This document shows positions 2,262 through 55,792 of a DNA stretch of 64,000 nt, piece after piece. This DNA comes from Escherichia coli (GTDB lineage Bacteria > Pseudomonadota > Gammaproteobacteria > Enterobacterales > Enterobacteriaceae), in assembly GCF_050320075.1 (NCBI RefSeq), contig NZ_CP190018.1; one strand, given 5' to 3'. The position numbers were made by a program, and so were the translations under genes. How positions within the stretch are numbered: the stretch's first letter is position 1; every line of letters begins with the position of its first letter. A model generated the notes under the pieces. The model saw only the letters and a list, made by a program, of their open reading frames with translations. It did not search any database and was not told where the DNA came from.

Positions 2262-5200
2262 ATGACATATCAGGCAATTTTCACTGGCTGGGATGATCTG
2301 ACGATTGAAGACCTTCTGGTCGCTTACCGGAAAGCAAAAGCCGATAGCTTCTTTGAGAATACATTTCCTGTTGCTATCAAATTTGCCGAGTATGAGCAGG
2401 AATTACTTGAAAACCTGCAAAAACTCTTAGATCTTTTGCAGAGCGAAGATGGATTCAGTAGCAATAAGAAGTTGATTGGCAAATTTCGATTGTTACCGAA
2501 AAAATTAACCACAAAGAAAAAACATGAATCCCAAAATGGACACGTCCACTTTTCTAATCCTAAACGAGCAGCCGACCATTTATTTAATAATTTTGATCTG
2601 ATACCAGAGTTTCGTATTATTGGTGACTTCCCGGTTGATAGTCACATTATCTCTGCACTATGGATTAACATGGTCGGGCATAAATTTGATGCCAGCTTAG
2701 ATAACTGTTGCTATGGCGCGCGGCTAAAGCGTATTCGTAATGATGAATTATTTAGCAATGAGCAGGATAATCCATTCCATATCAGTGCCGTGGGTTCTTT
2801 TAGCCCCTACTTCCAGCCCTACCAAAAATGGCGTGGTGATGGCTTAAAAGCTATACGTGACGAGTTGGAAAAAGATCGTGACATTATCGCCGCCTCACTG
2901 GATTTAAAAAGTTACTATCATTTTATTGATCCACTGGCTATAACCTCTGATGATCTCTATAACACACTAAACATAAAACTGACTGAGGATGAAAAAGCGT
3001 TTACTGCACAGTTAGCAGTATTCTTAAAGCACTGGTCTGACGGCGCAGCGGCATTTGGAAAGAAAATAGCGTACAAAACACCTGTTATTAATGGTGGTCT
3101 GGTCATTGGATTAACAGCCAGTCGGATCATTTCAAATATATTGCTACACCATTGGGATAAATTAGTCATTGAAAAACTATCACCAATTCACTACGGTCGT
3201 TATGTCGATGATATGTTCCTTGTAATACGCGATACAGGGACAATTACTAATAATCACGAATTTATGTTATTGCTGCAAGATAGGCTTGGCAATGATTGCG
3301 TTTATTTGAAAAACGAGCAAAAACAAATATGGCAAATACAGCAGGGCGAGCATTTCCAGGGTAAGACCACCATCCAGTTACAATCCGATAAGCAAAAACT
3401 TTTCGTGCTTCAAGGGAGGGCTGGAATAGACCTGCTCGACAGTATCGAAAAGGAGATCTACGAGCTTTCTAGTGAACACCGCTTGATGCCTTCACCGGAT
3501 CAACTGGAACACTCCACCGCAGCTAAAGTCCTTTCCGCTGCCGGTAGTGTAGGTGAAAATGCCGATACTCTGCGCCGTGCGGATGGATTAACCATTCGTC
3601 GTTTGGGCTGGTCACTGCAATTACGCTACGTTGAAACACTGGCACGAGATCTGCCTCCAAGTGAATGGAAAGAACAGCGGGAAGAGTTTTATCAGTTTGC
3701 CTACAACCATATTCTTAGGGCTGATAATCTATTTGCACATTTTAGTTATCTGCCAAGGCTGCTTGGCTTTGCTATCAGTATGAATGAATGGCAGCACGCG
3801 GAAAAAATTGTACTTAAAGCTTACGAATCCATCAACCTGTTGGCATCGGTGATTACTTCAGGTAAGGAAGTGAATATAAATGGTTGCAAAACTCGAGCAG
3901 TAAATGATCTTTGGCGCTGTATAAAAGGCACATTAAGCTGGCTATTTGTTGATGCAGCGACACGATATTACAGTCCTGACAGATTATTTCTTGATAAACG
4001 TTCAAAGAAAGAAGAGTGCCTTGCGGATACATTTTTTAATCATATTTCACAAAGTCTGACGAATCTAAAGGATTTACTGGATCTTCGCTTTGATTCAGCA
4101 GATTTTTATTTAAAAGCGCCATTGGTAGCTCGAGCTGATTTAGCAAAGGAACCTTATAAACAGATCGTAAAGAGTCAGTCGGCAGAAAAACTTGTTAATC
4201 AGCGTGATAGTAAAAAAGAAGTTAAAATACTGAAATTAATGAGCGACTCATCGCTTATTGATATTGACGTTATTAAGCTATTTTTGAAATCAACCAAGAA
4301 TACCCGACTGGAAAAAGTGGCTAAAGGAAATCGTAAGAACGAAAGTTACCTACCTTACATTTTCCCTACACGTCCTTTAACACCCGCTGAAATATCAGAA
4401 CTGGCCCCCGAATGTGTTGGATTACCCTCCACATCCGACAAAAAACCAGATGAGAGACCGTCCACCATTTGGGCAAAATATACTCAAGCATTACGCGGAG
4501 TATGGATCAAACCGACGTTGCTAGCATCGGAGCAGGACTCAGATGAAGCGACAAAAAAAGCTCGGCCTAAGAAATTCATTCATATTGGCACAGACAGGAA
4601 ACATAAAGTTGTCGTTGCGCTAACCAGCATTAAAACAGAGGAGGACGACTGGGCTAAAATGGCCTGCAATAAATCTAACTTGTCCCGTTCAAGGTACCAG
4701 CGGATTTCTGAACTGGTTAATGCAACATTGAAACTATCTCCTAAACCTGATTATGTTTTATTCCCTGAGCTTTCAATCCCGTTACGCTGGGTTAACAGTA
4801 TTGCTGATCGTTTGAGTTCGGCGGGTATCAGTCTAATTGCGGGAACAGAATACCGCCACTTAGACGATAATCAACTGAAGAGTGAGGCCGTACTTGTCCT
4901 TTCAGATAACAGACTCGGCTATCCAGCGAGTGTCAAAATATGGCAACCCAAGCTGGAACCCGCCGTAGGTGAAGATGAGGCATTATTTTCAATTTATGGT
5001 AAGTCTTGGGATTCGACACTTAATGTTAAACAACGTAAGCCGGTATATATTCATCACGGCGTCAATTTTGGCGTTATGATTTGCTCTGAACTCCAGAATA
5101 GTAAAGCGAGGATCCGTTTTCAGGGCGCACTCGATGCATTAATGGTATTGAGCTGGAATAAAGATCTAGATACGTTTGCATCGTTGATTGAATCAGCAGC

Positions 5201-5471
5201 GCTGGATATTCATGCCTATACTATTTTAGTGAATAACCGAAAATACGGCGATAGTCGCGTACGTTCCCCGGCAAAAGAACCCTTTATGCGTGATATTGCT
5301 CGTGTGAAGGGCGGTGATAATGACTTTGTGGTCGCTGCAACGCTGGATATCGACTCGTTAAGGGCATTTCAGAGCAGGGCAAAACGCTGGCCTAAAGGCG
5401 GCGATAAATTCAAACCGTTACCTGAAGGATTCCAGTTGGCAAAGAACCGCAAAAAGCTACCGCCAAAATAA
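2262..5471 (+). CDS. Reverse transcriptase fused to a C-terminal nitrilase (C-N hydrolase) domain; defence-associated RT architecture (UG/Abi, DRT type 1-like)
   Basis: 1069-aa ORF. RT motifs: LDLKSYY (A), GLVIGLTASRIISNILL (B), YVDD at nt 3201-3212 (C). C-terminal FPE (E836, nt 4767-4769) and MICSE (C941, nt 5082-5084) fit the nitrilase-superfamily Glu/Cys. Confidence 0.85.
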   Translation: MTYQAIFTGWDDLTIEDLLVAYRKAKADSFFENTFPVAIKFAEYEQELLENLQKLLDLLQSEDGFSSNKKLIGKFRLLPKKLTTKKKHESQNGHVHFSNPKRAADHLFNNFDLIPEFRIIGDFPVDSHIISALWINMVGHKFDASLDNCCYGARLKRIRNDELFSNEQDNPFHISAVGSFSPYFQPYQKWRGDGLKAIRDELEKDRDIIAASLDLKSYYHFIDPLAITSDDLYNTLNIKLTEDEKAFTAQLAVFLKHWSDGAAAFGKKIAYKTPVINGGLVIGLTASRIISNILLHHWDKLVIEKLSPIHYGRYVDDMFLVIRDTGTITNNHEFMLLLQDRLGNDCVYLKNEQKQIWQIQQGEHFQGKTTIQLQSDKQKLFVLQGRAGIDLLDSIEKEIYELSSEHRLMPSPDQLEHSTAAKVLSAAGSVGENADTLRRADGLTIRRLGWSLQLRYVETLARDLPPSEWKEQREEFYQFAYNHILRADNLFAHFSYLPRLLGFAISMNEWQHAEKIVLKAYESINLLASVITSGKEVNINGCKTRAVNDLWRCIKGTLSWLFVDAATRYYSPDRLFLDKRSKKEECLADTFFNHISQSLTNLKDLLDLRFDSADFYLKAPLVARADLAKEPYKQIVKSQSAEKLVNQRDSKKEVKILKLMSDSSLIDIDVIKLFLKSTKNTRLEKVAKGNRKNESYLPYIFPTRPLTPAEISELAPECVGLPSTSDKKPDERPSTIWAKYTQALRGVWIKPTLLASEQDSDEATKKARPKKFIHIGTDRKHKVVVALTSIKTEEDDWAKMACNKSNLSRSRYQRISELVNATLKLSPKPDYVLFPELSIPLRWVNSIADRLSSAGISLIAGTEYRHLDDNQLKSEAVLVLSDNRLGYPASVKIWQPKLEPAVGEDEALFSIYGKSWDSTLNVKQRKPVYIHHGVNFGVMICSELQNSKARIRFQGALDALMVLSWNKDLDTFASLIESAALDIHAYTILVNNRKYGDSRVRSPAKEPFMRDIARVKGGDNDFVVAATLDIDSLRAFQSRAKRWPKGGDKFKPLPEGFQLAKNRKKLPPK

Positions 5472-5681
5472 GAAACTGATTTTCGCTATTAATAATCAGG
5501 GTATTTTTGCGTGAGATGTTGGTAAACATGATGTAGCCCTTGCCACTCATGACCAATCGCAGTATCTTTCTCCCGCGCCTGCAAAATCAGGCGTCGGGAT
5601 TAGCCTCCTGAAGAAATCTTATCGGCGACACATGACGCGCCAGCGTCTTTTTTTGTGTTGTTCGCACGGTTACATCTCAAT

Positions 5682-5761
5682 GGTGGGCCGGGCGGGGGCG
5701 TCGCAAGACGCGCCAGTGTCCGATAAGGCTGGTAAGGCTAACCCTGCCCGGTTCCACCACC
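5682..5761 (+). ncRNA. Relic P4-type CI-like immunity RNA (second copy, different specificity)
   Basis: The closing stem ggtgggccgggcgggg / ccctgcccggttccaccacc mirrors the resident satellite CI RNA. An internal ccgataagg...aggctaa is complementary to flanking cttatcgg / gattagcct elements at 5598-5625 and 5767-5807. Confidence 0.4.
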
Positions 5762-5817
5762 CGCGAGATTAGCCTCTCCGGTGGTGGCTTGAACACCCAC
5801 TTATCGGAGGTTGCCCT

Positions 5818-6288
5818 ATGGCTACAATCCTCACCACTGACAGCGATTTACTCGATCTATTGACCGTCCCCTTCAATGCCACCACGGATTTCACTGTCCT
5901 TGCTGACTACTGCGCCCGCTTTGCCGAAACCCTGATTGAAACCGACGATCCAGCGCTACGACTGGCGCTCTGCGGGCGGCTTCACGCGGCTCTTGCGCTA
6001 CTGCAACCCACACTACACGACCCCATCCCACCGCATCTTACCGAAAGCCTGACCGTGGATACCCTTCCCGCCACACCAGAGCACTTTATTTCCGAACCTG
6101 ATTCCTTGTGCGAATACTGCCTCGCACTACTCCAGCTTCTGCTGGAACGTCCGGCGGAACCAAAAATGGAGCAAACCCTGACCGGGCTGCTGTGTGAGCT
6201 GGTCTGGTATTTCACGGAAGGACTCAAAGCCCCACGCTGGCTGCGTACCGCCGACGGCGTAAAATTTATCAGCGAGGTGGCCGCATGA
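5818..6288 (+). CDS. Hypothetical protein (first ORF downstream of the relic CI-like cassette)
   Basis: 156-aa ORF. GGAGG SD at 5806-5810, overlapped by the seqC-like element. The stop overlaps the next ATG (ATGA). No family recognised. Confidence 0.45.
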
Positions 6289-6425
6289 TGCAACAGGACT
6301 GGCATTCCGCCGACATTATTGCGGTGCTGAAAAAGCGGGGAACGCCTCTGGCGGCACAGAGAAAAACTCATTGCGGAAGCGCTGTAAATATCGCCAGAAA
6401 TCATCTGGCCTTCAAGGTACTTTGA
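6285..6425 (+). pseudogene. Ner/Nlp-like HTH regulator, disrupted
   Basis: The first ~25 codons ([24 protein letters not shown]) resemble Ner/Nlp. The rest is out of frame: LIAEAL then a stop, with [11 protein letters not shown] readable in another frame. Confidence 0.5.
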
Positions 6426-6434
6426 TAGCAAAGG

Positions 6435-6637
6435 CAAGCAGGCTGGTTCAGTCCAGTGTTTCTCTTCTTGCATTTTCAGAAATGGGAGGCTGGGAGTCTA
6501 TCGAAATGGTTCGTCGATATGCTCACCTCGCGCCTAATCACCTTACCGAACACGCACGGCAAATAGACTCAGTCCTGAACCCATCGGTCCCAAATTTGTC
6601 CCAGTCAAAAAATAAGGAAGGTACTAATGATGTGTAA
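6435..6637 (+). pseudogene. Tyrosine integrase C-terminal fragment (P22-type Int relic)
   Basis: Clear nucleotide and protein similarity to the 3' end of int at 55507-55702 ([31 protein letters not shown] vs [31 protein letters not shown]). The N-terminal ~320 codons are missing. Confidence 0.8.
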
Positions 6638-6785: not shown

Positions 6786-7086
6786 GAAAAAAGTTTTTTT
6801 TCGAAAGAACTGTTCACACTGTTCACCTTTCTGTTTTCTCCTTTTATTTCAGTTTGATAGGTGGTGAATAATGGGTGAATGGTGAACATTCGATTCTTCA
6901 CCTCCGGCATTCTGCCGGTGTGACTCATACCGGTGATTAATCCCCCGTACTGAAATCACACAGGGAGAAAAAAAGTTTTTTTTGATTTGATTGTTCACAC
7001 TGTTCACCTTTCATTTTTCTCTTTTAATTTCAGTGTGATAACGGGTGAATATACGGTGAAGGGTGAACAGTGGATTGTTCACCTTC
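6786..7086. repeat. crr-like cis replication region: two ~120-bp direct repeats ~60 bp apart carrying TGTTCACC/GGTGAA iterons
   Basis: 6786-6903 and 6968-7086 align almost base for base (aaaaaagtttttttt...tgttcacactgttcaccttt...ggtgaa...ttcacct). Same architecture as P4 crr, downstream of alpha. Confidence 0.8.
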
Positions 7087-7101
7087 GGGGAATTCAGGGA
7101 T

Positions 7102-7126
7102 AAAAAAAGACCGGCAGATGCCGGTC
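7102..7126 (-). terminator. Intrinsic terminator after alpha
   Basis: gaccggc-agat-gccggtc hairpin followed by a T7 run on the minus strand, 17 nt after the alpha stop. Confidence 0.7.
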
Positions 7127-7142
7127 AGATGAGTCATGATGG

Positions 7143-9476
7143 TCAGGTTGTTGCAGGGTCGTCACATTTTGGCAGCCAGTCGCCGTAGCTTTCCTCTTTC
7201 AGCGTCAGGTTGGTCTGTATCCCCTGTTTGGTATGGCGCTTCTCGTAATTCAGTCCGTATTCCTTCAGCATCACCGGCAGCCCCAGCCCGAACATTTTCA
7301 GACTGAGTACATTCCGGTAGCCGTTTGCCTCCATGTAGGCCAGATAGGCGTGATAGAGGTATTTACGGTAATTACGCGGGATGATACTGGCGTTCCCCAT
7401 ATACATGCCGCTGGTCTGCGGCAGGGTTTCCAGATAGCCGATAAAATCAAACGTCGGGTCGGCATCCCGTTTGATGTTCAGCGCCTCGTCTGAGTTCTGC
7501 TGGGACTGAAGCAGTGACCGGGCGAGCATCGGGTCGCTGAACTTCTGCATCAGGTGACGCACGATGACCGCCAGCTCGCGGGTGATTTTGTCCTTAAGCT
7601 GCGGGTCGCGCTCCTGCGGGGCTATCTGTTCCGGGAAGTGAATAATCACCCGCCGGCGTGACACGCCGCCGCTGCGGTCGGTGAAGCGCATCGGGTTATT
7701 GTTCACGGCCAGAATTACCGCCGGGATATGCGTGGAGTATGCATCCCGGTATTTCGGGTCAACGGACACCGCATCGCCGCCGGTGATGGCCTTGAGTCCG
7801 GCACCGTCGCCGCTCCATTTTTCCTGGTCCGGCAGGCGTATCAGTGAGAAGCCAGTTAACGCGGCACGTTCACGCGGGGATTCCAGCGTCTCGATGGTGG
7901 CCGACGTGGCGTTATCCTCCCCGGCCAGCAGGGTGGCTATTTCGGCCATGATACTTTTGCCGCTGCCGCCGGGACCGGTCACCTCCAGAAAGAGCTGCCA
8001 GTCGTAGCGGTTTGCCAGCACCATAAACAGTGCGGCCAGAATCACGTCGCGTTTTTCCGCACGGCCACCGGCGGCACGGTCAAGCCAGCGCCAGAACGCG
8101 GGGGCGTGGGTCTCCAGCGTTTCACCGTCCACCGGCGGGGTGAAATCCACATCGCACAGGGTGCGCATCCAGTGTGACGGACTGTGCGGGTGGAACGTGC
8201 CGTTCTGCGTGTCGAGCACGCCGTTACGAAAGCCAATCAGGCGGCGGGAGGGGGCTTCCTGCTGCGGAATAATCAGCTTCAGGGTGTCCACCACGGAGGC
8301 CACCTTCCCGGAGGAGAACGGCGCGCGCAGACGCTGAAACAGCCCGGCCACATCCCGGGCAAAGTCCTGTGGTGGCAGCACCTTCCAGACACCATTTTCA
8401 TAACGGGACAGAAGCTGGCCGTTGGCATCGACCGCGAGCGCCTCGCCGTAATGCTCATAGATACGCATGGCCTTTTCGCTGGTACTCATGGCGGAAAACT
8501 CCGCTTCGCTCATGGTGTCGAACGGGCTTTCAGCCGGTGGCCGGATGGCATCATAAATGGCCTTACGGGTGGCTTCCCCGCCGTACTGCGTGAAGGCATC
8601 ATTCCAGTCACCGAAGACCGGCGGCAGGGCAACAACGCCCTCACACGCATCTGCGGCTGCGGCGGCTTTTTTCTGGCCGTCACCGCTGAGGTCACGGTCT
8701 GCGGCAAGGACAATCTGACAGGCCGGATGCTTCTGCCGGGCAAGGCTGGCCAGAGAAAGGAGGTTCACGGAAGAAAGCGCCACCATCACCGTTTCACCGG
8801 TCAGGTGATGTACGGTAAGTGCGGTCGCGTATCCCTCCGCTATCCACAGACGTTTTCCGGCCTGATTCTGTCCTTCAAGGGTGTGACAGGTGCCCCTGAC
8901 CTGTCCGCCTTTCAGGGTGCGCTTACGGCCGTCAGCACTGATTAACTGAAGGTTAACCAGTTCGCCGCTGTCGTCATACAGTGGCACCACAAGGTCACCG
9001 GCACGCCAGCTCACGCCACCGGCTCTGTGTGTGCCGGTCAGCATCCGGCATTCCCGGCCGGGAAAGCCCTTGCGGGTCAGGTAGGCGTTACCGGTTCCGG
9101 GACGGGTTTTCGCCATCAGGGTTTGTGCCAGTGCGGCGGCGTTCTTCCGGGCAGCGTCTGTTTCAGCACCGGCGGCAGCCGTCACTGCCGGGTCAGCCGG
9201 GGGCAGGCTGCCGGTCACGGCAGCCACCTTTGCTGCCGCGTCGGACGGGGAAACACCAAACACCTTTTCAACCAGTTTCAGGCCGTCACCGGCACCACAC
9301 TGATTGCAGTACCAGGTGCCGCGCCCCTCCCTGTCATCAAAACGGAAGCGGTCACTCCCGCCACAGACCGGACAGGGCTGATGACGGTTTTTCAGCACCT
9401 GAATCCCCAGCGCCGGGAGAATACGCGGCCAGTGGCCGAGCGCATGGCTGACGGTGGCGGTTACGTTCATTTTCAT
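7143..9476 (-). CDS. alpha: P4 alpha-type primase/helicase/origin-binding protein
   Basis: 777 aa, the same length as P4 gpalpha. N-terminal zinc-binding CPVCGG...CNQCG, TOPRIM-like core and a GPGGSGKS Walker A motif. Confidence 0.9.
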   Translation of the reverse strand: MKMNVTATVSHALGHWPRILPALGIQVLKNRHQPCPVCGGSDRFRFDDREGRGTWYCNQCGAGDGLKLVEKVFGVSPSDAAAKVAAVTGSLPPADPAVTAAAGAETDAARKNAAALAQTLMAKTRPGTGNAYLTRKGFPGRECRMLTGTHRAGGVSWRAGDLVVPLYDDSGELVNLQLISADGRKRTLKGGQVRGTCHTLEGQNQAGKRLWIAEGYATALTVHHLTGETVMVALSSVNLLSLASLARQKHPACQIVLAADRDLSGDGQKKAAAAADACEGVVALPPVFGDWNDAFTQYGGEATRKAIYDAIRPPAESPFDTMSEAEFSAMSTSEKAMRIYEHYGEALAVDANGQLLSRYENGVWKVLPPQDFARDVAGLFQRLRAPFSSGKVASVVDTLKLIIPQQEAPSRRLIGFRNGVLDTQNGTFHPHSPSHWMRTLCDVDFTPPVDGETLETHAPAFWRWLDRAAGGRAEKRDVILAALFMVLANRYDWQLFLEVTGPGGSGKSIMAEIATLLAGEDNATSATIETLESPRERAALTGFSLIRLPDQEKWSGDGAGLKAITGGDAVSVDPKYRDAYSTHIPAVILAVNNNPMRFTDRSGGVSRRRVIIHFPEQIAPQERDPQLKDKITRELAVIVRHLMQKFSDPMLARSLLQSQQNSDEALNIKRDADPTFDFIGYLETLPQTSGMYMGNASIIPRNYRKYLYHAYLAYMEANGYRNVLSLKMFGLGLPVMLKEYGLNYEKRHTKQGIQTNLTLKEESYGDWLPKCDDPATT

Positions 9477-9490
9477 GGTGTTGTTCTCCT

Positions 9491-9811
9491 TCAGTGCAGT
9501 ACCGGCGCTTTTATGTGACGGGCACAGAGTTCATCCATCACAACCAGCCCGAGAAAGGACAGCGACGGCGCGGCCTTCAGGGGGCCGGATTCCATTAAAT
9601 CTTCCAGCAGGGCACAGGCTATCTGACGCCCTTTTTCCTCACCGTGCTGGCGCAGATAAAAGCCTTCCAGCTCAGCGGCGATGGCCGCCTCCAGTGATTC
9701 AAGGGTGAGATGCGGGTAGCGGTGCTGACGTTCGCACACGGTCAGCCAGGCACAGGCGACAGCGCGACGGTAAAGGGCTGCGCGTAAGACGGGCGGTAAG
9801 GGTGTTTTCAT
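9491..9811 (-). CDS. P4 orf106-like protein
   Basis: 106-aa ORF immediately upstream of alpha, with the position and length of P4 orf106. Confidence 0.6.
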
Positions 9812-9946
9812 TTGTTTTCCTCCCTGTGACAGATGACTGCATTCCGTGCCGGTTGCATTAACTGATAAGGCATATCTGCGTCTCCTGAAGACGTGCGTAT
9901 CCCTGCGCGAATACGCACATTTAATTTTTCGGGTGTCGTTTTTTAA

Positions 9947-10402
9947 TTACAGATAATTGCGGTAACTGTTATCCGGGGTGATTTCCGGGTCAGGCTCCGT
10001 GCGGGGAATTTCCCGCCATTCCCGCGCCACCGGTGCCGCCCGGCTGGCCGGAACAGTGTCCTGCGGGTAAATATCCAGATATTTCTCCCGCCATTTCTGT
10101 AATTCCGGGTCTCCGGCCATTTCTTTCAGTACCGCATGCCGGTTTACGGGGCTGCGTTTAAACAGGTCAGGACGGTCACAGGTAAATTCCCGCAGAAAAC
10201 GCCCCAGCGGGATGTCTGTGGTGCGCCCGTCAGCGAGGATACGCACAAGGATACTGAATTTACGGCGGTACGGGTTCCAGACAATGTCCGGGCAGCGGTA
10301 CGGCATTTCCCACGGAATACCGTCTTCCAGAATGCCGACCACGGCCACATCGGGAAAACCGGCAGAACGGTAAATCTCACCGGGCTGGGGAAAATCAAAC
10401 AT
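9947..10402 (-). CDS. P4 orf151-like protein
   Basis: 151-aa ORF between epsilon and orf106, with the position and length of P4 orf151. Confidence 0.6.
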   Translation of the reverse strand: MFDFPQPGEIYRSAGFPDVAVVGILEDGIPWEMPYRCPDIVWNPYRRKFSILVRILADGRTTDIPLGRFLREFTCDRPDLFKRSPVNRHAVLKEMAGDPELQKWREKYLDIYPQDTVPASRAAPVAREWREIPRTEPDPEITPDNSYRNYL

Positions 10403-10682
10403 GCGTCCTGTCTCCCCGGTCTTTCTGCTGGGCGAGAAAATCGCGGCACAGGCCTTTGGCTTTCAGTTCATTCAGCACAAAATCAATATCTTCATTCAGG
10501 TAGCTGAAAATATGCGGAATGTAGAGCTGATGCAGGCCGGAGAGTTCACGGTGAATCAAATCACCCCCAACAAACCGGGATACGGCGCTGGCGCGGTTGA
10601 GCTTATGGTAAGCCTCAATGCTGAGGTGTTCACGGGCGTCATGACGCGCTGAGACGGTCTGAGGGGCTTTTTTATTACGCAC
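10395..10682 (-). CDS. epsilon: P4 epsilon-like antirepressor (derepresses helper prophage)
   Basis: 95 codons from a GTG at 10680-10682, with GGAGG upstream. Length and position match P4 epsilon. The ORF-track 177-aa ORF is an upstream over-extension. Confidence 0.6.
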
Positions 10683-10872
10683 GGGACACCTCCACCACCG
10701 GCAGACGGGCAGCAAGGGAGAGCACATAGTCACGGACAAGGGAACGGCGGGCGCTGCGTTCATCACCGGCGACGGTGCGAAGCATACAGATACGGGGATG
10801 ACGATCTGCGCGACGGACAGCCGCAAACACAAAGACAAATTCAGGGTGTGAGGTGGTAAGGGTTGTAGCCAT
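10675..10872 (-). CDS. Small ORF (65 aa) downstream of CI RNA; eta-position gene
   Basis: ATG at 10870-10872. Its GGAGG SD (10881-10885) lies inside the seqC-like element, as for the first translated ORF after cI in P4. Confidence 0.5.
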
Positions 10873-10883
10873 GATGGCAGCCT

Positions 10884-10924
10884 CCTTGAAGTAACAGTTA
10901 CAGCTACCACTGGAGTTCCTACGC
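10884..10924 (-). promoter_or_regulatory. seqC-like target of CI RNA
   Basis: Minus-sense gcgtaggaac...ttacttcaagg is complementary to the CI seqB ccttgaagg...ttcctac. Near-duplicate of 11106-11131. Confidence 0.65.
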
Positions 10925-11010
10925 TCATGGGTGGTAGCCCGGACGGGGGTAGGAATACCGGCCTTCAAGGAAACCGGCCAGCCCGAAGGCTGCCCCGCCC
11001 GGACCACCAT
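10925..11010 (-). ncRNA. cI: P4-type CI immunity RNA (contains seqB at 10949-10970)
   Basis: A long closing stem (atggtggtccgggcgggg / ccccgtccgggctaccac) encloses ccttgaaggccggtattcctac, which is complementary to both seqA-like and seqC-like elements. Position between PLE and epsilon. Confidence 0.65.
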
Positions 11011-11105
11011 TATCTGACAGAGGCTACGGTTTAAAAACCACAGCCAGAAAAACAGGTGTGCCGAAGCAACGACGTAAAAAAAGACGCATGGCGCGTCATA
11101 TGTCG

Positions 11106-11131
11106 CCTTGAAGTAACTCGGGTTCCTACGC
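11106..11131 (-). promoter_or_regulatory. seqA-like target of CI RNA (overlaps the RBS of a 22-codon kil-position ORF starting at 11101-11103)
   Basis: ccttgaagtaactcgggttcctacgc on the plus strand is a near-duplicate of the seqC-like element and complementary to seqB. Confidence 0.6.
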
Positions 11132-11225
11132 CCGGCTGCCGATTTTGCGGCAGCGGAAAAACTATATCCGCAAATGCCGGAAAAAGGCAAGCCAGAAAAA
11201 GGGACTTTTTGCAGAACAGGCATCA

Positions 11226-11492
11226 TCATGCGTCATACCCCCGTTGGCGTCCGGCAATGCGGCCGGCCATCCATGCGGTGACTTCAGAGTGCAGCCAGGC
11301 CACATTTTTACCGCCAAGACTCACCTGCGGCGGAAATTCCCCCTTACGGATGAGTTCATAGATGGTCGAGCGTGACAGGCCGCACAGGTGCATCACTTCC
11401 GGCAGACGTAAAAAACGCTCCTGCGTGATGTCCGGCAGCGGCATCAGTGGCGTCACAGGGGCGGGAGACGGGGAAGAAAAAACAGCTTGCAT
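11226..11492 (-). CDS. vis: Vis/AlpA-family excisionase-regulator (P4 orf88)
   Basis: 88 aa. The MerR/AlpA-type HTH ([27 protein letters not shown]) and the position between PLL and PLE match P4. Confidence 0.8.
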
Positions 11493-11594
11493 CGGGCTAC
11501 CTCGTTAATGTCCATACAGCACCGGATAAGTCCGTCCGGCTTCTGGTAGCGCTTTATTTTGTGAATATTTTCAGCAGACGCAACAGGGGGAATT

Positions 11595-11612
11595 TGTTCC
11601 GGCAACCTTACA
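11595..11612. promoter_or_regulatory. TGT-N12-ACA activator dyad of PLL-type late promoter
   Basis: tgttccggcaaccttaca. Centred ~110 nt upstream of the vis start, consistent with a -55 Ogr/Delta-type site. Confidence 0.6.
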
Positions 11613-11770
11613 ATGGCTGTGTGTTTTTTATCCATCTGGACTGGAAGGGTCTCAAAGGGTTCTGAAGGACCTGGAATTTTTTATAGTGAAATACAAATTG
11701 TTTTTTCTTATTTATTTCAGTGAATTAATAAAAATAAACAGTGATAAACAGCATAAAAAGCCCATCAACG

Positions 11771-11884
11771 GGTGAACAGTGGTGAACAGACGGTGAACAG
11801 TCATTACTGCGATTGTTCACCCTTTAACTTACTGTATTACTTATCTTTTTTCTTATGGTGAACAGAGGTGAACAGTAAAATATA
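11771..11884. repeat. P4-type ori: six GGTGAACA/TGTTCACC type I iterons
   Basis: Copies at 11771, 11781, 11793, 11814 (inverted), 11867 and 11877. Same 8-mer as in crr. An AT-rich stretch lies upstream (11690-11760). Confidence 0.8.
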
Positions 11885-11953
11885 AAAAAACAAACAGTAA
11901 GCCGGTTTTTCCTGCGACCTTTTCCTGGCTTGCCGGTCTGAGGATGAGTCTCC

Positions 11954-11971
11954 TGTGTCAGGGCTGGCACA
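11954..11971. promoter_or_regulatory. TGT-N12-ACA activator dyad of Psid-type late promoter
   Basis: tgtgtcagggctggcaca, ~80 nt upstream of the sid ATG (12044). Consistent with a -55 Delta/Ogr site. Confidence 0.65.
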
Positions 11972-12043
11972 TCTGCAATGCGTCGTGTTGCTGTCCGGTG
12001 TACGTCACAATTTTCTTAACCTGAAGTGACGAGGAGCCGGAAA

Positions 12044-12778
12044 ATGTCTGACCACACTATCCCTGAATATCTGCAACCCGCACTGGCACAACTGGAAAAG
12101 GCCAGAGCCGCCCATCTTGAGAACGCCCGCCTGATGGATGAGACCGTCACGGCCATTGAACGGGCAGAGCAGGAAAAAAATGCGCTGGCGCAGGCCGACG
12201 GAAACGACGCTGACGACTGGCGCACGGCCTTTCGTGCAGCCGGTGGTGTCCTGAGCGACGAGCTGAAACAGCGCCACATTGAGCGCGTGGCACGCCGGGA
12301 GCTGGTACAGGAATATGACAATCTGGCCGTGGTGCTGAATTTCGAACGTGAACGCCTGAAAGGGGCGTGTGACAGCACGGCCACCGCCTACCGGAAGGCA
12401 CATCATCACCTTCTGAGTCTGTATGCAGAGCATGAGCTGGAACACGCCCTGAATGAAACCTGTGAGGCGCTTGTCCGGGCAATGCATCTGAGCATTCTGG
12501 TACAGGAAAATCCGCTCGCCAACACCACCGGCCATCAGGGCTACGTCGCACCCGATAAGGCTGTCATGCAGCAGGTGAAATCATCGCTGGAACAGAAAAT
12601 TAAACAGATGCAAATCAGCCTCAGCGGCGAGCCGGTTCTCCGGCTGACCGGACTGTCAGCGGCAACACTTCCGCACATGGATTATGAGGTGGCAGGCACA
12701 CCGGCACAGCGCAAGGTGTGGCAGGACAAAATAGACCAGCAGGGAGCAGAGCTTAAGGCCAGAGGACTGCTGTCATGA
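12044..12778 (+). CDS. sid: Sid capsid size-determination (external scaffold) protein
   Basis: 244 aa from the ATG at 12044 (GAGGAG SD), the same length as P4 Sid. Helical and charged. First gene of the sid-delta-psu operon. Confidence 0.8.
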   Translation: MSDHTIPEYLQPALAQLEKARAAHLENARLMDETVTAIERAEQEKNALAQADGNDADDWRTAFRAAGGVLSDELKQRHIERVARRELVQEYDNLAVVLNFERERLKGACDSTATAYRKAHHHLLSLYAEHELEHALNETCEALVRAMHLSILVQENPLANTTGHQGYVAPDKAVMQQVKSSLEQKIKQMQISLSGEPVLRLTGLSAATLPHMDYEVAGTPAQRKVWQDKIDQQGAELKARGLLS

Positions 12779-13275
12779 TTTACTGCCCGTCGTGTGGACA
12801 TGTTGCTCACACCCGTCGCGCACATTTCATGGACGATGGCACCAAGATAATGATTGCACAGTGCCGGAATATTTATTGCTCTGCGACATTTGAAGCGAGT
12901 GAAAGCTTTTTCTCTGACAGTAAAGATTCAGGAATGGAATACATTTCAGGCAAACAGAGATACCGCGATTCACTGACGTCAGCCTCCGGCAGTATGAAAC
13001 GCCCGAAAAGAATGCTTGTTACCGGATATTGTTGTCGGAGATGTAAAGGCCTTGCACTGTCAAGAACATCGCGGCGTCTGTCTCAGGAAGTCACCGAGCG
13101 TTTTTATGTGTGCACGGATCGGGGCTGTGGTCTGGTGTTTAAAACGCTTCAGACCATCAACCGTTTCATTGTCCGCCCGGTCACGCCGGACGAACTGGCA
13201 GAACGCCTGCATGAAAAACAGGAACTGCCGCCAGTACGGTTAAAAACACAATCATATTCGCTGCGTCTGGAATGA
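12775..13275 (+). CDS. delta: Delta (duplicated Ogr-type zinc-finger late activator)
   Basis: 166 aa. Two CxxC...CxxxxC Ogr-like halves (CPSCGH...CRNIYC and CRRCKG...CTDRGC). ATGA-coupled to sid. Confidence 0.85.
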   Translation: MIYCPSCGHVAHTRRAHFMDDGTKIMIAQCRNIYCSATFEASESFFSDSKDSGMEYISGKQRYRDSLTSASGSMKRPKRMLVTGYCCRRCKGLALSRTSRRLSQEVTERFYVCTDRGCGLVFKTLQTINRFIVRPVTPDELAERLHEKQELPPVRLKTQSYSLRLE

Positions 13276-13348
13276 GGGCTGCCGGTTAACACCGGCCGTC
13301 GCCGCACACCGTATTTTTATTCTTCAGCATGATGAGAAAGAGATAACG

Positions 13349-13921
13349 ATGGAAAGCACAGCCTTACAGCAGGCCTTTGACACCTGTCAGAATAACAAAG
13401 CAGCATGGCTGCAACGCAAAAATGAGCTGGCAGCGGCCGAACAGGAATATCTGCGGCTTCTGTCAGGAGAAGGTAGAAACGTCAGTCGCCTGGACGAATT
13501 ACGCAATATTATCGAAGTCAGAAAATGGCAGGTGAATCAGGCTGCCGGTCGTTATATTCGTTCGCATGAAGCCGTTCAGCACATCAGCATCCGCGACCGG
13601 CTGAATGATTTTATGCAGCAGCACGGCACAGCACTGGCGGCCGCACTGGCACCGGAGCTGATGGGCTACAGTGAGCTGACGGCCATTGCCCGAAACTGTG
13701 CCATACAGCGTGCCACAGATGCCCTGCGTGAAGCCCTTCTGTCCTGGCTTGCGAAGGGGGAAAAAATTAATTATTCCGCACAGGATAGCGACATTTTAAC
13801 GACTATCGGATTCAGGCCTGACGCGGCTTCTGTGGATGACAGCCGTGAAAAATTCACCCCTGCGCAGAACATGATTTTTTCGCGTAAAAGTGCGCAACTG
13901 GCATCACGTCAGTCTGTGTAA
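13349..13921 (+). CDS. psu: Psu (polarity suppression / capsid decoration, Rho antagonist)
   Basis: 190 aa, the same length and position as P4 Psu. Confidence 0.8.
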   Translation: MESTALQQAFDTCQNNKAAWLQRKNELAAAEQEYLRLLSGEGRNVSRLDELRNIIEVRKWQVNQAAGRYIRSHEAVQHISIRDRLNDFMQQHGTALAAALAPELMGYSELTAIARNCAIQRATDALREALLSWLAKGEKINYSAQDSDILTTIGFRPDAASVDDSREKFTPAQNMIFSRKSAQLASRQSV

Positions 13922-14085
13922 AATTCCCCGAAAATCCGCCTGTTTTTACTGAAAAAAGCCATGCATCGATAAGGTGCATGGCTTTGCATGCGTTTTCCTG
14001 CCTCATTTTCTGCAAACCGCACCATTCCCGGCGCGGTCTGAGCGTGTCAGTGCAACTGCATTAAAACCGCCCCGCAAAGCGGGCG

Positions 14086-14104
14086 GGCGAGGCGGGGAAA
14101 GCAC
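14086..14104. other. P2/P4-type cos cohesive-end sequence
   Basis: ggcgaggcggggaaagcac matches the 19-nt P2/P4 cohesive end as I recall it. Located after psu as in P4. Confidence 0.7.
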
Positions 14105-14122
14105 TGCGCGCAACAATGATGA

Positions 14123-15517
14123 TTATGATTTCATTTTATCTGCAATATCTTCTAAGGAATCAAAGAATGCTTTGACAAAGTTGTCTTTATTAACAGTAGT
14201 AAAGTTTTGATTGTAAAATCCTACACATGCAGAAAAAATTGCTCTGCAAGTTAGCTCATTATATTTAGATGAATATAATGGTTCGACTCCACGATACACG
14301 GACCAAGAACCATGAGCTATATCAGACCTAGTCTTATACATTTCCTGAGCCACTCTAGCCCATTTTTTTTCATCTTGATAATAAATAGAAACTAATGAAG
14401 AAACACGACTTACGAAGTTCTTTGTTGTAGATGAATCCTTTTTTTCGCTACTTAGACTAACCAGCCGTTCAAGAGCCGTTGTTAATTTTACTATACGAGA
14501 ACTTTCATCCTTATCCTGTTGTGCGCTACTAAATAAATAGATAGCATCAATTAGCCTGTCTGCAATTACAGAGTTTTCATGAGGTTCTATCGCCAACTCT
14601 ATTAACCGAGAAAGAACTAACCCTAAGTCAGATTTGTAATCATCTTCAAACTTATTCCAAAACTCACCGCTATTGGCTATAGTCCCTTTAGTTGAGTAAT
14701 GATAGTTAAACATTTCGTTTGGTTTCTTGGAAAGATAAAAGCCGTCATAATTTGGGTAAGGATCTGTTGATATACTTAAAAAGTATGGGGAGATATTATA
14801 GTGCACACCAAATAGCTGTAGTATCCCAACCACAAAACATGCAATATTTTTAGCGATTCTCTGCCTACTTAACTTAGAGCGTTTGCTAACAGGGATTTTT
14901 AGGTAGTGTTTATAATGAAATTTATGAGAAGAACAAAATTTCTTAGCTAAATCAAGTTGTTGCTCAGTAAAATCATCACTAATAGTTAAGTGCATTTTTT
15001 CTGCCGATATAATATCAACTCGGCCAATAGACATTATATCTCGTTCCAACCCGTGAGCTAAAATAGGATAATAAAAATCCTCTTCAGACATTTCTCTCCT
15101 TGTTAGTTTTAATGTTTTATTTAGGAGGATAGTACATCCACTCCTGTCGCAACTGCCGTTCTCAACCCAAATATGCATAAACAATATTTTCTTAAGATTA
15201 CTTAAAAATTCATCGGTAGTAACTAGCATTTCTAAGCGATTTGATTTTATAAATCTAGCCGAAATAGCATATAACTTCTCATAAGAGGCATATGATAGAT
15301 GAATTTGAGTTCTAGAAAGATCTGTTCTTCCTTTTATTAGTTCATATGGTGCATCTATGGTCATTCCCAATGAACCAAAATTACCATTATATTCTTTTTT
15401 GTAAAATTCCATAAAATTAGATGAGGATGTTAACTCTTTATTTATTCTAACAGCCTCATCAAGAATAAATTTAAAATCTTTAACGTCTTCCAAACTGGCA
15501 CTCATCATTTTCACCAT
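14123..15517 (-). CDS. Orphan cargo protein with C-terminal HEPN-like Rx4H motif; candidate anti-phage effector
   Basis: 464-aa ORF, markedly AT-rich. Fills the cos-int slot. R397-S-D-I-A-H402 (nt 14312-14329) sits in a helical C-terminal region. Start ambiguous (15517, 15508 or 15505) and overlaps the int 3' end. Confidence 0.6.
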   Translation of the reverse strand: MVKMMSASLEDVKDFKFILDEAVRINKELTSSSNFMEFYKKEYNGNFGSLGMTIDAPYELIKGRTDLSRTQIHLSYASYEKLYAISARFIKSNRLEMLVTTDEFLSNLKKILFMHIWVENGSCDRSGCTILLNKTLKLTRREMSEEDFYYPILAHGLERDIMSIGRVDIISAEKMHLTISDDFTEQQLDLAKKFCSSHKFHYKHYLKIPVSKRSKLSRQRIAKNIACFVVGILQLFGVHYNISPYFLSISTDPYPNYDGFYLSKKPNEMFNYHYSTKGTIANSGEFWNKFEDDYKSDLGLVLSRLIELAIEPHENSVIADRLIDAIYLFSSAQQDKDESSRIVKLTTALERLVSLSSEKKDSSTTKNFVSRVSSLVSIYYQDEKKWARVAQEMYKTRSDIAHGSWSVYRGVEPLYSSKYNELTCRAIFSACVGFYNQNFTTVNKDNFVKAFFDSLEDIADKMKS

Positions 15518-16685
15518 TTAAATTAATAATAAAATCACTATACCACTGCATCATTTTCTTTCGATCTTCTATATACTGTGCATGATTATATACACCACGT
15601 ATCGTGTTTTTATCCACATGAGCCAACTGCATTTCAATCCAAGCAGTATTAAAACCATTTTCATGGAGTATTGTTGATAATGTATGCCTAAATCCATGTC
15701 CTGTAAGTTTTCCCGCATAGCCTATGCGTTTGATAAGTTGATTAACACTTGCCTCACTCATAGGTTTGTTTGGATCATTCCGTCCCGGGAAAACATAACG
15801 ATAATTTCCTGTCATAGATTTAAGTTCATTAAGAAAGCCTAATACCTGGGTCGATAAGGGGACTAGGTGCGGCCTACGCATTTTCATTTTTTCGGCAGGA
15901 ATTTCCCAAATAGCGTTGTCCAGATCAAACTCTTGCCATAATGCCGCTCGCAACTCGATAGTTCTAACCCCAGTAACCATCAATAATTTTGTGGCAATCT
16001 GAACAAGTCGGCTTCCTGCATAACTATCTAAAGCACGCAGAAAATCAGGTATCTCATCTGATTTTAAGAAAGGAAAATGATTTGATTTGTGTACTTCGAG
16101 GGCACTGGACAGATCTGCCGCAGGATTAAACTCTGCTCTTCCGGTAGCAATAGCATATCGAAAAACCTCTGAGCAACGTTGCCGCACTTTGCGCATTTTC
16201 TCCAATGCACCACGTTTCTCAATTTTACGCAGCACATTTAGCAATTCTAGCGGTTTAATTTCCCCTACAGGCCTCGTCCCTACATACGGAAAAATATCAT
16301 TTTGGAACGCCTCAATAATATCTGAGGCATACCCAGCAGACCATTTTGCCGACTTCATCTGATGCCACTCTCTGGCAATCTTTTCGAATGCGTTCTCAGA
16401 TTGAATTCGTAATGCTAATTTTTGTTCTTTTCGAACCTCACTAGGATTTTTTCCCTCGGCCACTATTTTTCTGGCCTCATCACGGCGGGCGCGAGCTTCA
16501 GCAAGTGTGATCGTTGGATAAACACCAAGCGAGATCATTTTAGGTTTACCTGCATAGCGATAACGAAATCGCCAGCTTTTACTTCCATTTGGCTCTACAA
16601 GTAAAGACAACCCTTGCCCATCCCCAAGTGTATAGGCTTTAGCTTCAGGTTTAGCACGGCGAATCTGCATATCATTTAGGGGCAT
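15480..16685 (-). CDS. int: Tyrosine integrase, P4-Int family (DUF4102-type N-terminus)
   Basis: 401 aa. N-terminal LSLLVEPNGSKSWRFRYRYAGK arm-binding-type domain. C-terminal HGFRHT...LAHVDKNTIRGVYNHA catalytic region. Adjacent to the att copy. Confidence 0.9.
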   Translation of the reverse strand: MPLNDMQIRRAKPEAKAYTLGDGQGLSLLVEPNGSKSWRFRYRYAGKPKMISLGVYPTITLAEARARRDEARKIVAEGKNPSEVRKEQKLALRIQSENAFEKIAREWHQMKSAKWSAGYASDIIEAFQNDIFPYVGTRPVGEIKPLELLNVLRKIEKRGALEKMRKVRQRCSEVFRYAIATGRAEFNPAADLSSALEVHKSNHFPFLKSDEIPDFLRALDSYAGSRLVQIATKLLMVTGVRTIELRAALWQEFDLDNAIWEIPAEKMKMRRPHLVPLSTQVLGFLNELKSMTGNYRYVFPGRNDPNKPMSEASVNQLIKRIGYAGKLTGHGFRHTLSTILHENGFNTAWIEMQLAHVDKNTIRGVYNHAQYIEDRKKMMQWYSDFIINLNGENDECQFGRR

Positions 16686-16849
16686 GTGTATAGAATTCCA
16701 AAATCGAACAGGAACATATACATAATCCTATACACATTTAGTACTGGATTCTACTGGAAGGTTATGGACTAACACGGACAACGATAACAAAAAATCTTTT
16801 ATAAAACAGTATGCTTATGGACAAATACGGACGTTTGAAGAAGTTGGGA

Positions 16850-16895
16850 TGGTGCCGATAATAGGAGTCGAACCTACGACCTTCGCATTACGAAT
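16850..16895 (-). other. 46-nt duplicate of the thrW 3' end (att junction between satellite and P22-like prophage)
   Basis: Exact match to 55717-55762 (tggtgccgataataggagtcgaacctacgaccttcgcattacgaat). Diverges inside the anticodon stem, so it is not a complete tRNA. Confidence 0.9.
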
Positions 16896-17126
16896 CTGTA
16901 GCACCAATCATAACTATCTGTTTTAGCAAGCATTAACCGCATTCACCAAGCAATAGTTGATGGCACAAACAGAAAGTTGATGCATGATGTTGTCATGTGT
17001 ATGTCACAAATACGGCACAACGATCTTCAAACATGTAGCCACTCAGCATAGAAGAGCACAAAGCCTTGCAATCCAGTGCAAAGCTTTGTGTGTCTCAGTT
17101 TTGTTTCATCTGTAATTATGTGTTCG

Positions 17127-55716: not shown

Positions 55717-55792
55717 TGGTGCCGATAATAGGAGTCGAACCTACGACCTTCGCATTACGAATGCGCTGCTCTACCAACTGAGCTATATCGGC
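55717..55792 (-). tRNA. thrW: tRNA-Thr (CGU)
   Basis: The 76-nt reverse complement reads GCCGATATAGCTCAGTTGGTAGAGCAGCGCATTCGTAATGCGAAGGTCGTAGGTTCGACTCCTATTATCGGCACCA, a cloverleaf with a CGT anticodon and encoded CCA. Confidence 0.95.

Follow-up and report, generated by a model that had tools for sequence, protein, structure and literature searches.

The P4-like satellite in a 64,000-nt stretch of Escherichia coli DNA (contig NZ_CP190018.1 of assembly GCF_050320075.1; hereafter, the window) carries, between its cos site and its integrase gene, a single AT-rich gene whose product is confidently predicted to end in a HEPN RNA-cutting domain. As a preliminary description made from the letters alone had stated, a 464-codon open reading frame (ORF) occupies this interval (Table 1), and cos lies where that description had placed it, with GGCGAGGCGGGGAAAGCAC lying 18 nt past the stop codon. 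By our own arithmetic (~7.5% stops per codon), the probability that 464 codons remain open by chance at 33% G+C is ~1e-16. Residues are numbered throughout according to the 464-codon ORF.

Translation almost certainly begins at ATG 15505 (M5 of the ORF), because the N-termini of homologues read MSAS... in an alignment of close relatives, the int/cargo junction GGTGAAAAT-N-ATGAG is kept in Klebsiella and Serratia, and the resulting 460-aa form is the commonest in the collection, being present on 508 contigs. RefSeq annotates a 461-aa form that starts at M4 and overlaps int by 29 nt; the conserved junction favours M5. The 38-nt overlap with int described earlier is correct for the longest ORF, but the probable start reduces it to 26 nt. 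A Shine-Dalgarno-like GGTGA lies 5 nt upstream of this ATG, and the junction GGTGAAAA-N-ATG is found likewise in Klebsiella (L002) and Serratia (L014). A σ70-like promoter candidate inside int (TCGAAA, 16 nt, TG-TATAGT) is a weak lead. Downstream, a terminator-like hairpin of six pairs, all G+C, followed by TTTTAAT, begins at the last base of cos, 37 nt from the stop codon on the cargo strand, and could end both the cargo and the int transcripts. Other P4 hotspot clones, as given in PMC9122126, also contain the cos-flank sequence around this hairpin.

Table 1. Features of the satellite and of its HEPN-family gene (positions in the window)
Feature	Position	Strand	Remarks
Alpha primase-helicase	7143-9476	-	
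C4 and isrK immunity RNAs	10927-11154	-	
sid-like, delta, psu	12026-13921	+	
Terminator-like site	14067..14086	-	G+C-rich hairpin, then T-run; scan and sequence
P2/P4-type cos	14086..14104	+	Left border of cargo slot; sequence read
HEPN-family CDS	14123..15505	-	Stop TAA 14123-14125; probable start ATG 15503-15505; 460 aa
Longest ORF of the gene	14123..15517	-	464 codons; ORF list
C-terminal HEPN domain (predicted)	14126..14668	-	Residues ~284-464, all-helical
R397-S-D-I-A-H402 codons, Rx4H catalytic motif	14312..14329	-	Invariant Y394 before, invariant G403 after
DRLIDAI ... K344-L-T-T-A-L-E350-R helices of HEPN core	14465..14563	-	Residues ~319-351, conserved
N-terminal region	14669..15505	-	Residues 5-283; helical subdomain (~9-142), then alpha/beta subdomain (~144-273); AlphaFold2 secondary structure
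P4-type tyrosine integrase	15480..16685	-	Right border of cargo slot; ORF list, RefSeq annotation
Shine-Dalgarno-like GGTGA	15511..15515	-	Within int 3' end
σ70-like promoter candidate	15537..15564	-	Inside int, just upstream of the gene; consensus scan; weak
Copy of tRNA-Thr (thrW) 3' part	16849..16895	.	47 nt; attachment-site repeat at integrase end of satellite

The HEPN domain and its family

An AlphaFold2 model built from 19 sequences (pLDDT 80.3, pTM 0.76) consists of helices across residues 284-463, in agreement with the all-helical C-terminal part expected from the sequence, and these helices form the helical bundle typical of the HEPN superfamily. Solved structures matching this fold (scores in brackets) include the HEPN toxin 8xdj (9.7), AF0298 (2hsb, 9.2), YutE (1ylm, 9.1), HepT (7ae2, 8.8, and 5yep, 8.0), the HEPN domain of sacsin (3o10, 7.7) and Csm6 (8jbc, 7.7); AbiA, Csx1 and AbiV stand lower in the same list. 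The closest of them are HepT/HEPN toxins of HEPN-MNT toxin-antitoxin pairs.

The catalytic helix carries R397-S-D-I-A-H402, whose codons lie at the positions originally assigned to them. This is the sole Rx4-6H motif in the protein, and a protein of its composition is expected to contain 1.56 such motifs by chance; the motif that had been put forward as evidence for HEPN is by itself at chance level, and it is residue conservation and fold that carry the assignment. Conservation of the R/H pair among homologues had been chosen beforehand as a test on which the HEPN reading could fail, and both residues proved invariant in an alignment of 19 sequences and in one of 30. In the former, Y394 and G403 are likewise invariant, as are D320, L322-I326, K344, T347, L349, E350 and R351 in the core helices. 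In the latter, whose members are as little as 16% identical, invariance is confined to P151, K344, E350, R371, Y394, R397, H402 and G403.

Of these, P151 lies in the N-terminal region. As had been recognised at the outset, this part of ~280 aa has no family assignment, being blank in Pfam, NCBIfam, PHROGs and PADLOC, and in structure searches no non-HEPN fold match stood out for it. We propose that residues 5-283 form a sensor or regulatory module.

The gene had been called an orphan, a label that does not hold. A word-seeded search returned 27 clusters of relatives, 30-100% identical and mostly from Enterobacterales, and an exhaustive hidden Markov model (HMM) search of 1.84 billion representatives returned 898 proteins at E<=1e-3, with 344 of them also reaching E<=1e-10. 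The majority of the 898 are 430-500 aa long and matched over nearly their full length. RefSeq already names the E. coli protein 'HEPN domain-containing protein' (WP_235839804.1), and UniRef and JGI name some family members 'Apea-like HEPN'. The suggestion of an undescribed family survives to the extent that we found no Pfam, NCBIfam or PADLOC 2.0 model and no paper testing a member, but the HEPN label was already in RefSeq and UniRef. The protein itself had no match in NCBIfam or PHROGs, nor in a profile search of PDB sequences. In Pfam it matched HEPN_Apea below threshold (E 0.028, residues 342-434, 15.3 bits against a cut-off of 24.4), as the only one of 19 members to do so; a match to Pfam PFU was spurious.

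The cargo slot and the spread of the gene

Gene order, cos and the C4/isrK RNAs place the gene between psu/cos and int, the cargo position of P4-like satellites. The psu-int locus is an experimentally validated defence hotspot in which uncharacterised HEPN cargo has been noted and for which Table S1 lists single-gene 'HEPN_Apea' cargos (PMC9122126); the string GGCGAGGCGGGGAAAGCAC also occurs within the P4 hotspot clones of Table S2B of that work. When eight unknown P4 cargos were picked at random, six gave protection against phages (PMC13586616). None of the new P4 systems of that study (Crouga, Bandua, Aernus, Toga, Reve, Hailong) fits our protein, judged by description.

The slot holds variable cargo, as had been suspected. 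Elsewhere the same psu/delta/sid backbone carries in its cos-int slot a DEAD-box helicase, or a reverse transcriptase with a hypothetical protein, and the HEPN gene is present in 15 of 5426 complete E. coli genomes, whereas 2242 match the flanks of the query. Copies from E. coli of different hosts and countries are >99% identical. The estimate that the ORF is about one third G+C, against a GC-richer backbone, agrees with measurement: 0.330 for the ORF and 0.56 for alpha to psu. The compositional break is at cos and not at the int/cargo junction, because the integrase gene is itself AT-rich (G+C 0.415); G+C at third codon positions (GC3) is 0.26 in the HEPN ORF, 0.33 in the integrase gene and 0.71 in alpha. 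The HEPN gene and its relatives have 31-34% G+C, against 45-56% in their hosts.

The gene directly follows a P4-type integrase gene in E. coli, K. pneumoniae, two Serratia and Y. pestis, with a spacing of -26 to +13 nt and a conserved ribosome-binding junction. In the window the order is int, the gene (overlapping int by 26 nt), cos and psu. In Serratia, P4-like satellites carry the HEPN homologue at the same slot position: in Serratia fonticola it lies 13 nt beyond int, and in Serratia sp. L9 it overlaps int by 4 nt (longest ORF, GTG start) and is followed by psu. The K. pneumoniae homologue (67% identical; L002-L005, locus coordinates 6820-9840) is part of a decayed satellite and is indexed in 4228 blocks of the assembly collection. 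There, int, a 5-nt gap, the HEPN gene and an 82-aa psu fragment are all that is left between sugar-utilisation genes and DUF3237/ADH genes of the chromosome; the cargo seems to have outlived its satellite. In Y. pestis NCTC5923, where the pair likewise seems to outlive the satellite, int and the gene are followed by an IS. In each of four further genomes, which represent three other genera, the integrase beside the HEPN homologue shares ~63% identity with that of the window. On these sequence comparisons, int and cargo may travel as one module.

Other relatives lie away from this arrangement: in Brenneria the gene is in an integrase-rich island, a metagenomic relative is IS1-flanked together with RelA_SpoT, Phd/YoeB and a restriction enzyme, another adjoins SymE and Gp49/HTH, and in Pectobacterium the gene adjoins an AAA_21/AAA_15 ATPase. 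A scan of the genome collection with two peptide patterns from close relatives found the gene in four species-representative genomes. No record of the phage collection carried it, and the plasmid collection yielded nothing but a distant Vibrio HEPN, borne by a large plasmid. Across eleven independent contexts no neighbour is conserved, a cognate antitoxin gene included, so the gene is a single-gene unit. In Pectobacterium sp. B2J-2 (L017, 7488-9895, minus strand), a 516-aa AAA_21/AAA_15 ABC-type ATPase and a 285-aa protein lacking a Pfam match are encoded directly downstream of the homologue on the opposite strand, a pair reminiscent of two-gene defence systems that combine an ATPase with an effector, such as PARIS or Gabija-like systems.

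Proposed function and its alternatives

On balance, we think that the gene, an exchangeable cargo of the psu/cos-int hotspot in a thrW-integrated P4-like satellite, probably encodes a one-protein system acting by abortive infection: a HEPN RNase that is activated by phage and contains its own N-terminal sensor. The analysis itself establishes the fold, the invariance of the catalytic residues, the single-gene arrangement, the position in a variable slot and the occurrence across satellites and islands; RNase activity, dimerisation, trigger, RNA target and protection are what we infer, as follows. The active site would be built from Y394, R397, S398 and H402, together with E350 and K344 of the preceding helices. 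By analogy with HEPN enzymes, two molecules would dimerise through their HEPN domains, bringing both Rx4H motifs together in a single metal-independent RNase site, which would be closed in uninfected cells. The N-terminal module, possibly through a pocket shared with the HEPN domain, would recognise a cue of phage infection. The opened RNase would then cut cellular RNA, most probably tRNA anticodon loops, translation would stop and the infection would abort, protecting satellite-bearing sister cells. Expression of the gene is probably tied to int, as the start codon and GGTGA fall within the last 26-35 nt of int, and the transcript may end at the hairpin just past cos.

Several known systems resemble this proposal in part. 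HepS of the Gifsy-1 prophage is a single-protein HEPN defence, a phage-activated tRNA anticodon nuclease that causes abortive infection (PMC13043305). HepS and HepT are stand-alone HEPN domains of <250 aa, whereas a ~280-aa N-terminal module is fused to the HEPN domain here, and HepT needs an MNT antitoxin while the satellite protein has no partner gene; identity with HepS was rejected on architecture. DARNA (PD-T7-3) also cleaves tRNA anticodon loops upon a phage cue and aborts infection (10.64898/2026.02.22.705581). Like the satellite protein, it is a single protein of ~456 aa that combines a HEPN RNase with a ~300-aa non-catalytic domain; however, its HEPN domain is N-terminal (R117/H122) and its Pds5-like domain C-terminal, the reverse of the order seen here. 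With its HEPN domain at the C-terminus and no PADLOC match, the satellite protein is not DARNA. PADLOC presumably includes the Vassallo PD-T7 systems. 'HEPN-TPR' (pFR83, E. coli ATCC 8739; PMC9122126 Table S2B) is a single-gene HEPN cargo of the same psu/cos-int slot with a similar catalytic block, L-Y-K-x-R-S-x-x-x-H. Beyond that block the two proteins are unrelated (BLASTP E 2.6), and the HEPN motif of HEPN-TPR lies near residue 290, ahead of the region its authors assign to TPR; it is a different protein.

Certain observations count against a phage-activated HEPN nuclease. Certain HEPN domains are non-catalytic, although such domains usually lack the R/H pair. A Foldseek search with the whole chain gave no significant match, and the RNA target and the trigger are assigned by pure analogy. 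PADLOC 2.0 was blank for the protein, and both PADLOC 2.0 and Pfam were blank for ten distant relatives. A literature search by accession retrieved no paper or experiment on the protein or its homologues, and the peptides DRLIDAI and TALERLVS were absent from those parts of the DefensePredictor supplements that were available. The promoter candidate does not rise above chance, with seven sites in the region against 9.6 +/- 3.2 in shuffles. Finally, HEPN-TPR appears only among the 'additional tested systems' of PMC9122126 and not among the validated ones, so that a HEPN domain in this slot is no assurance of a phenotype when only a small panel of phages is tried.

ApeA defends by abortive infection, as a tRNA anticodon nuclease that phage activates (10.64898/2026.01.26.701840), and the satellite protein might be a remote, compact member of this family (Gao_Ape; Ec1ApeA, WP_000706972.1, and Ec2ApeA, WP_032180471.1), with a HEPN-dimer ring that a small nucleotide ligand in an N-terminal/HEPN pocket would activate to cleave tRNA anticodon loops; we regard this as possible yet rather unlikely. 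ApeA sequences were recovered via a partial Ec2ApeA from the supplement of the same paper, and 22 were aligned. Both proteins are products of single genes in which a C-terminal HEPN domain follows a helical N-terminus and an alpha/beta middle part, and among solved HEPN folds both come nearest to HepT-type toxins. They share the catalytic block Y-x-x-R-[SN]-x-I-[AV]-H and, upstream of it, an A-L-E helix, and invariants of our family coincide with invariants of ApeA (A332/A353, K344/N365, L345/L366 and E350/E371; Y394/Y499, R397/R502, S398/N503 and H402/H507). Three weak but colinear profile matches connect the middle part (199-242/243-286), the helices (319-359/340-380) and the catalytic segment (389-407/494-512), and the sub-threshold HEPN_Apea match and the 'Apea-like HEPN' names in UniRef and JGI point the same way.

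Other observations count against membership. Aligning the 30- and 22-sequence profiles, hhalign gave a local probability of 9% and a full-length one of 1.7%. The profile score for the HEPN domain alone was 25.5 against 14.8 for the reversed control, whereas the full-length score (26.1) was hardly above its control (22.1), and reciprocal hmmsearch with ApeA reached 8-14 bits. At 460 aa the protein is ~120 residues shorter than ApeA (583-600 aa) and lacks ~85 residues between the ALE and catalytic helices, which are ~30 residues apart here and ~115 in ApeA; the ApeA pocket residues cannot be aligned with it. The PADLOC ApeA model gave no match even at E<=10, which is weak evidence because the model, while matching Ec2ApeA (PDLC02157, 2.2e-12), misses three remoter true ApeA homologues (~35% identical to Ec2ApeA). 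The Pfam HEPN_Apea model (PF18739), whose gathering score the protein does not reach, is non-discriminating because Ec2ApeA itself is missed at E<=0.1. Automated surveys probably undercount ApeA-like proteins. No ApeA chain was among the matches in the PDB copy searched. Similarity being confined to the motif level, we did not file the protein as ApeA; its HEPN core appears ApeA-like in flavour at the level of catalytic block and motif, and ApeA-like tRNA cleavage is our leading guess for the mechanism of the proposed phage-activated RNase. A bolder version of that proposal, to which we give distinctly limited credence, is that the N-terminal ~280 residues are a new kind of phage-sensing module on an ApeA-like HEPN core and that int and the HEPN gene move and survive together, the translation start of the effector lying within the integrase gene in several genera.

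The kinship of the fold with HepT/HEPN toxins and the persistence of the int-HEPN pair in decayed remnants, in K. pneumoniae (4228 blocks) and Y. pestis, would also suit an addiction or stabilisation toxin, an RNase that retains the int-cargo module or the satellite while an antitoxin that has escaped recognition, be it a small protein, an RNA or some covalent modification, neutralises it. Several of the loci adjoin toxin-antitoxin genes. Such a toxin is nonetheless improbable: no adjacent small ORF or MNT gene is conserved, there are no tandem repeats able to encode an RNA antitoxin, the gene fills the space between int and cos but for 18 nt, and an N-terminal module of ~280 residues conserved across the family suits a built-in regulator better than a free toxin.

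Still less probable is a role in the life cycle of the satellite or in conflict with its helpers, such as transcript trimming during P4 derepression or interference with P2-like helpers, in place of general defence. P4 satellites do manipulate their helpers, through sid, psu and delta, and the tight, conserved coupling to int would tie expression to the integrase. However, the gene is too rare among flank-matching E. coli genomes (15 against 2242) to belong to the core life cycle, its relatives also lie outside satellites in IS-flanked and toxin-antitoxin or defence islands, and the wider family of 898 representatives far exceeds the four genomes of the two-pattern scan. That the protein is a degenerate, non-catalytic hitch-hiker in the slot, as the unvalidated related HEPN cargo of PMC9122126 might suggest, is very improbable given a frame kept intact in AT-rich DNA, catalytic residues invariant down to 16% identity, near-identical E. 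coli copies from different hosts and countries and retention in K. pneumoniae beyond the decay of the remaining satellite.

Should the protein protect, a large family (at least 898 clusters at 50% identity) that PADLOC 2.0.0 misses would join the defence catalogue, with relatives in Y. pestis, Serratia, Pectobacterium and Brenneria and a close K. pneumoniae homologue in 4228 blocks. It would offer a compact relative for comparison with ApeA-type activation and a natural case of a HEPN RNase silenced by a fused domain in place of an antitoxin, and it would show int-proximal cargo retained after satellite decay. If expression of the effector is truly coupled to the integrase, this would be an unrecognised way of arming satellite defence only when the element is activated. 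The kind of mechanism would not be new, single-protein HEPN abortive-infection nucleases in mobile-element hotspots being already established; the gene is a good but unsurprising defence candidate, a new family-level version of a well-known kind in a well-known place.

The satellite in its surroundings

The chromosome of E. coli YZLc1-3 (NZ_CP123240.1) matches the window at 100% identity, and the P4-like satellite spans ~7100-16900 of the window. The thrW repeat at its integrase end matches annotated tRNA-Thr at 100% in thousands of E. coli genomes. A complete tRNA-Thr(CGT) lies at 55717-55792, and the satellite stands at thrW in tandem with a P22-like prophage (~17100-55700) that encodes a tailspike, an O-antigen acetyltransferase, an Arc-family regulator, ejection proteins and gp10. 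On the other side, a second, decayed P4-like element (2262-6637) adjoins the satellite. According to RefSeq it comprises a 1069-aa 'RNA-directed DNA polymerase' (~2262-5471, plus strand), an ash family protein, a frameshifted HTH gene and an integrase fragment. Its large reverse transcriptase could represent defence cargo of this remnant. A second copy of the isrK and C4 RNAs is located at 5575-5764 on the plus strand, opposite to the first.

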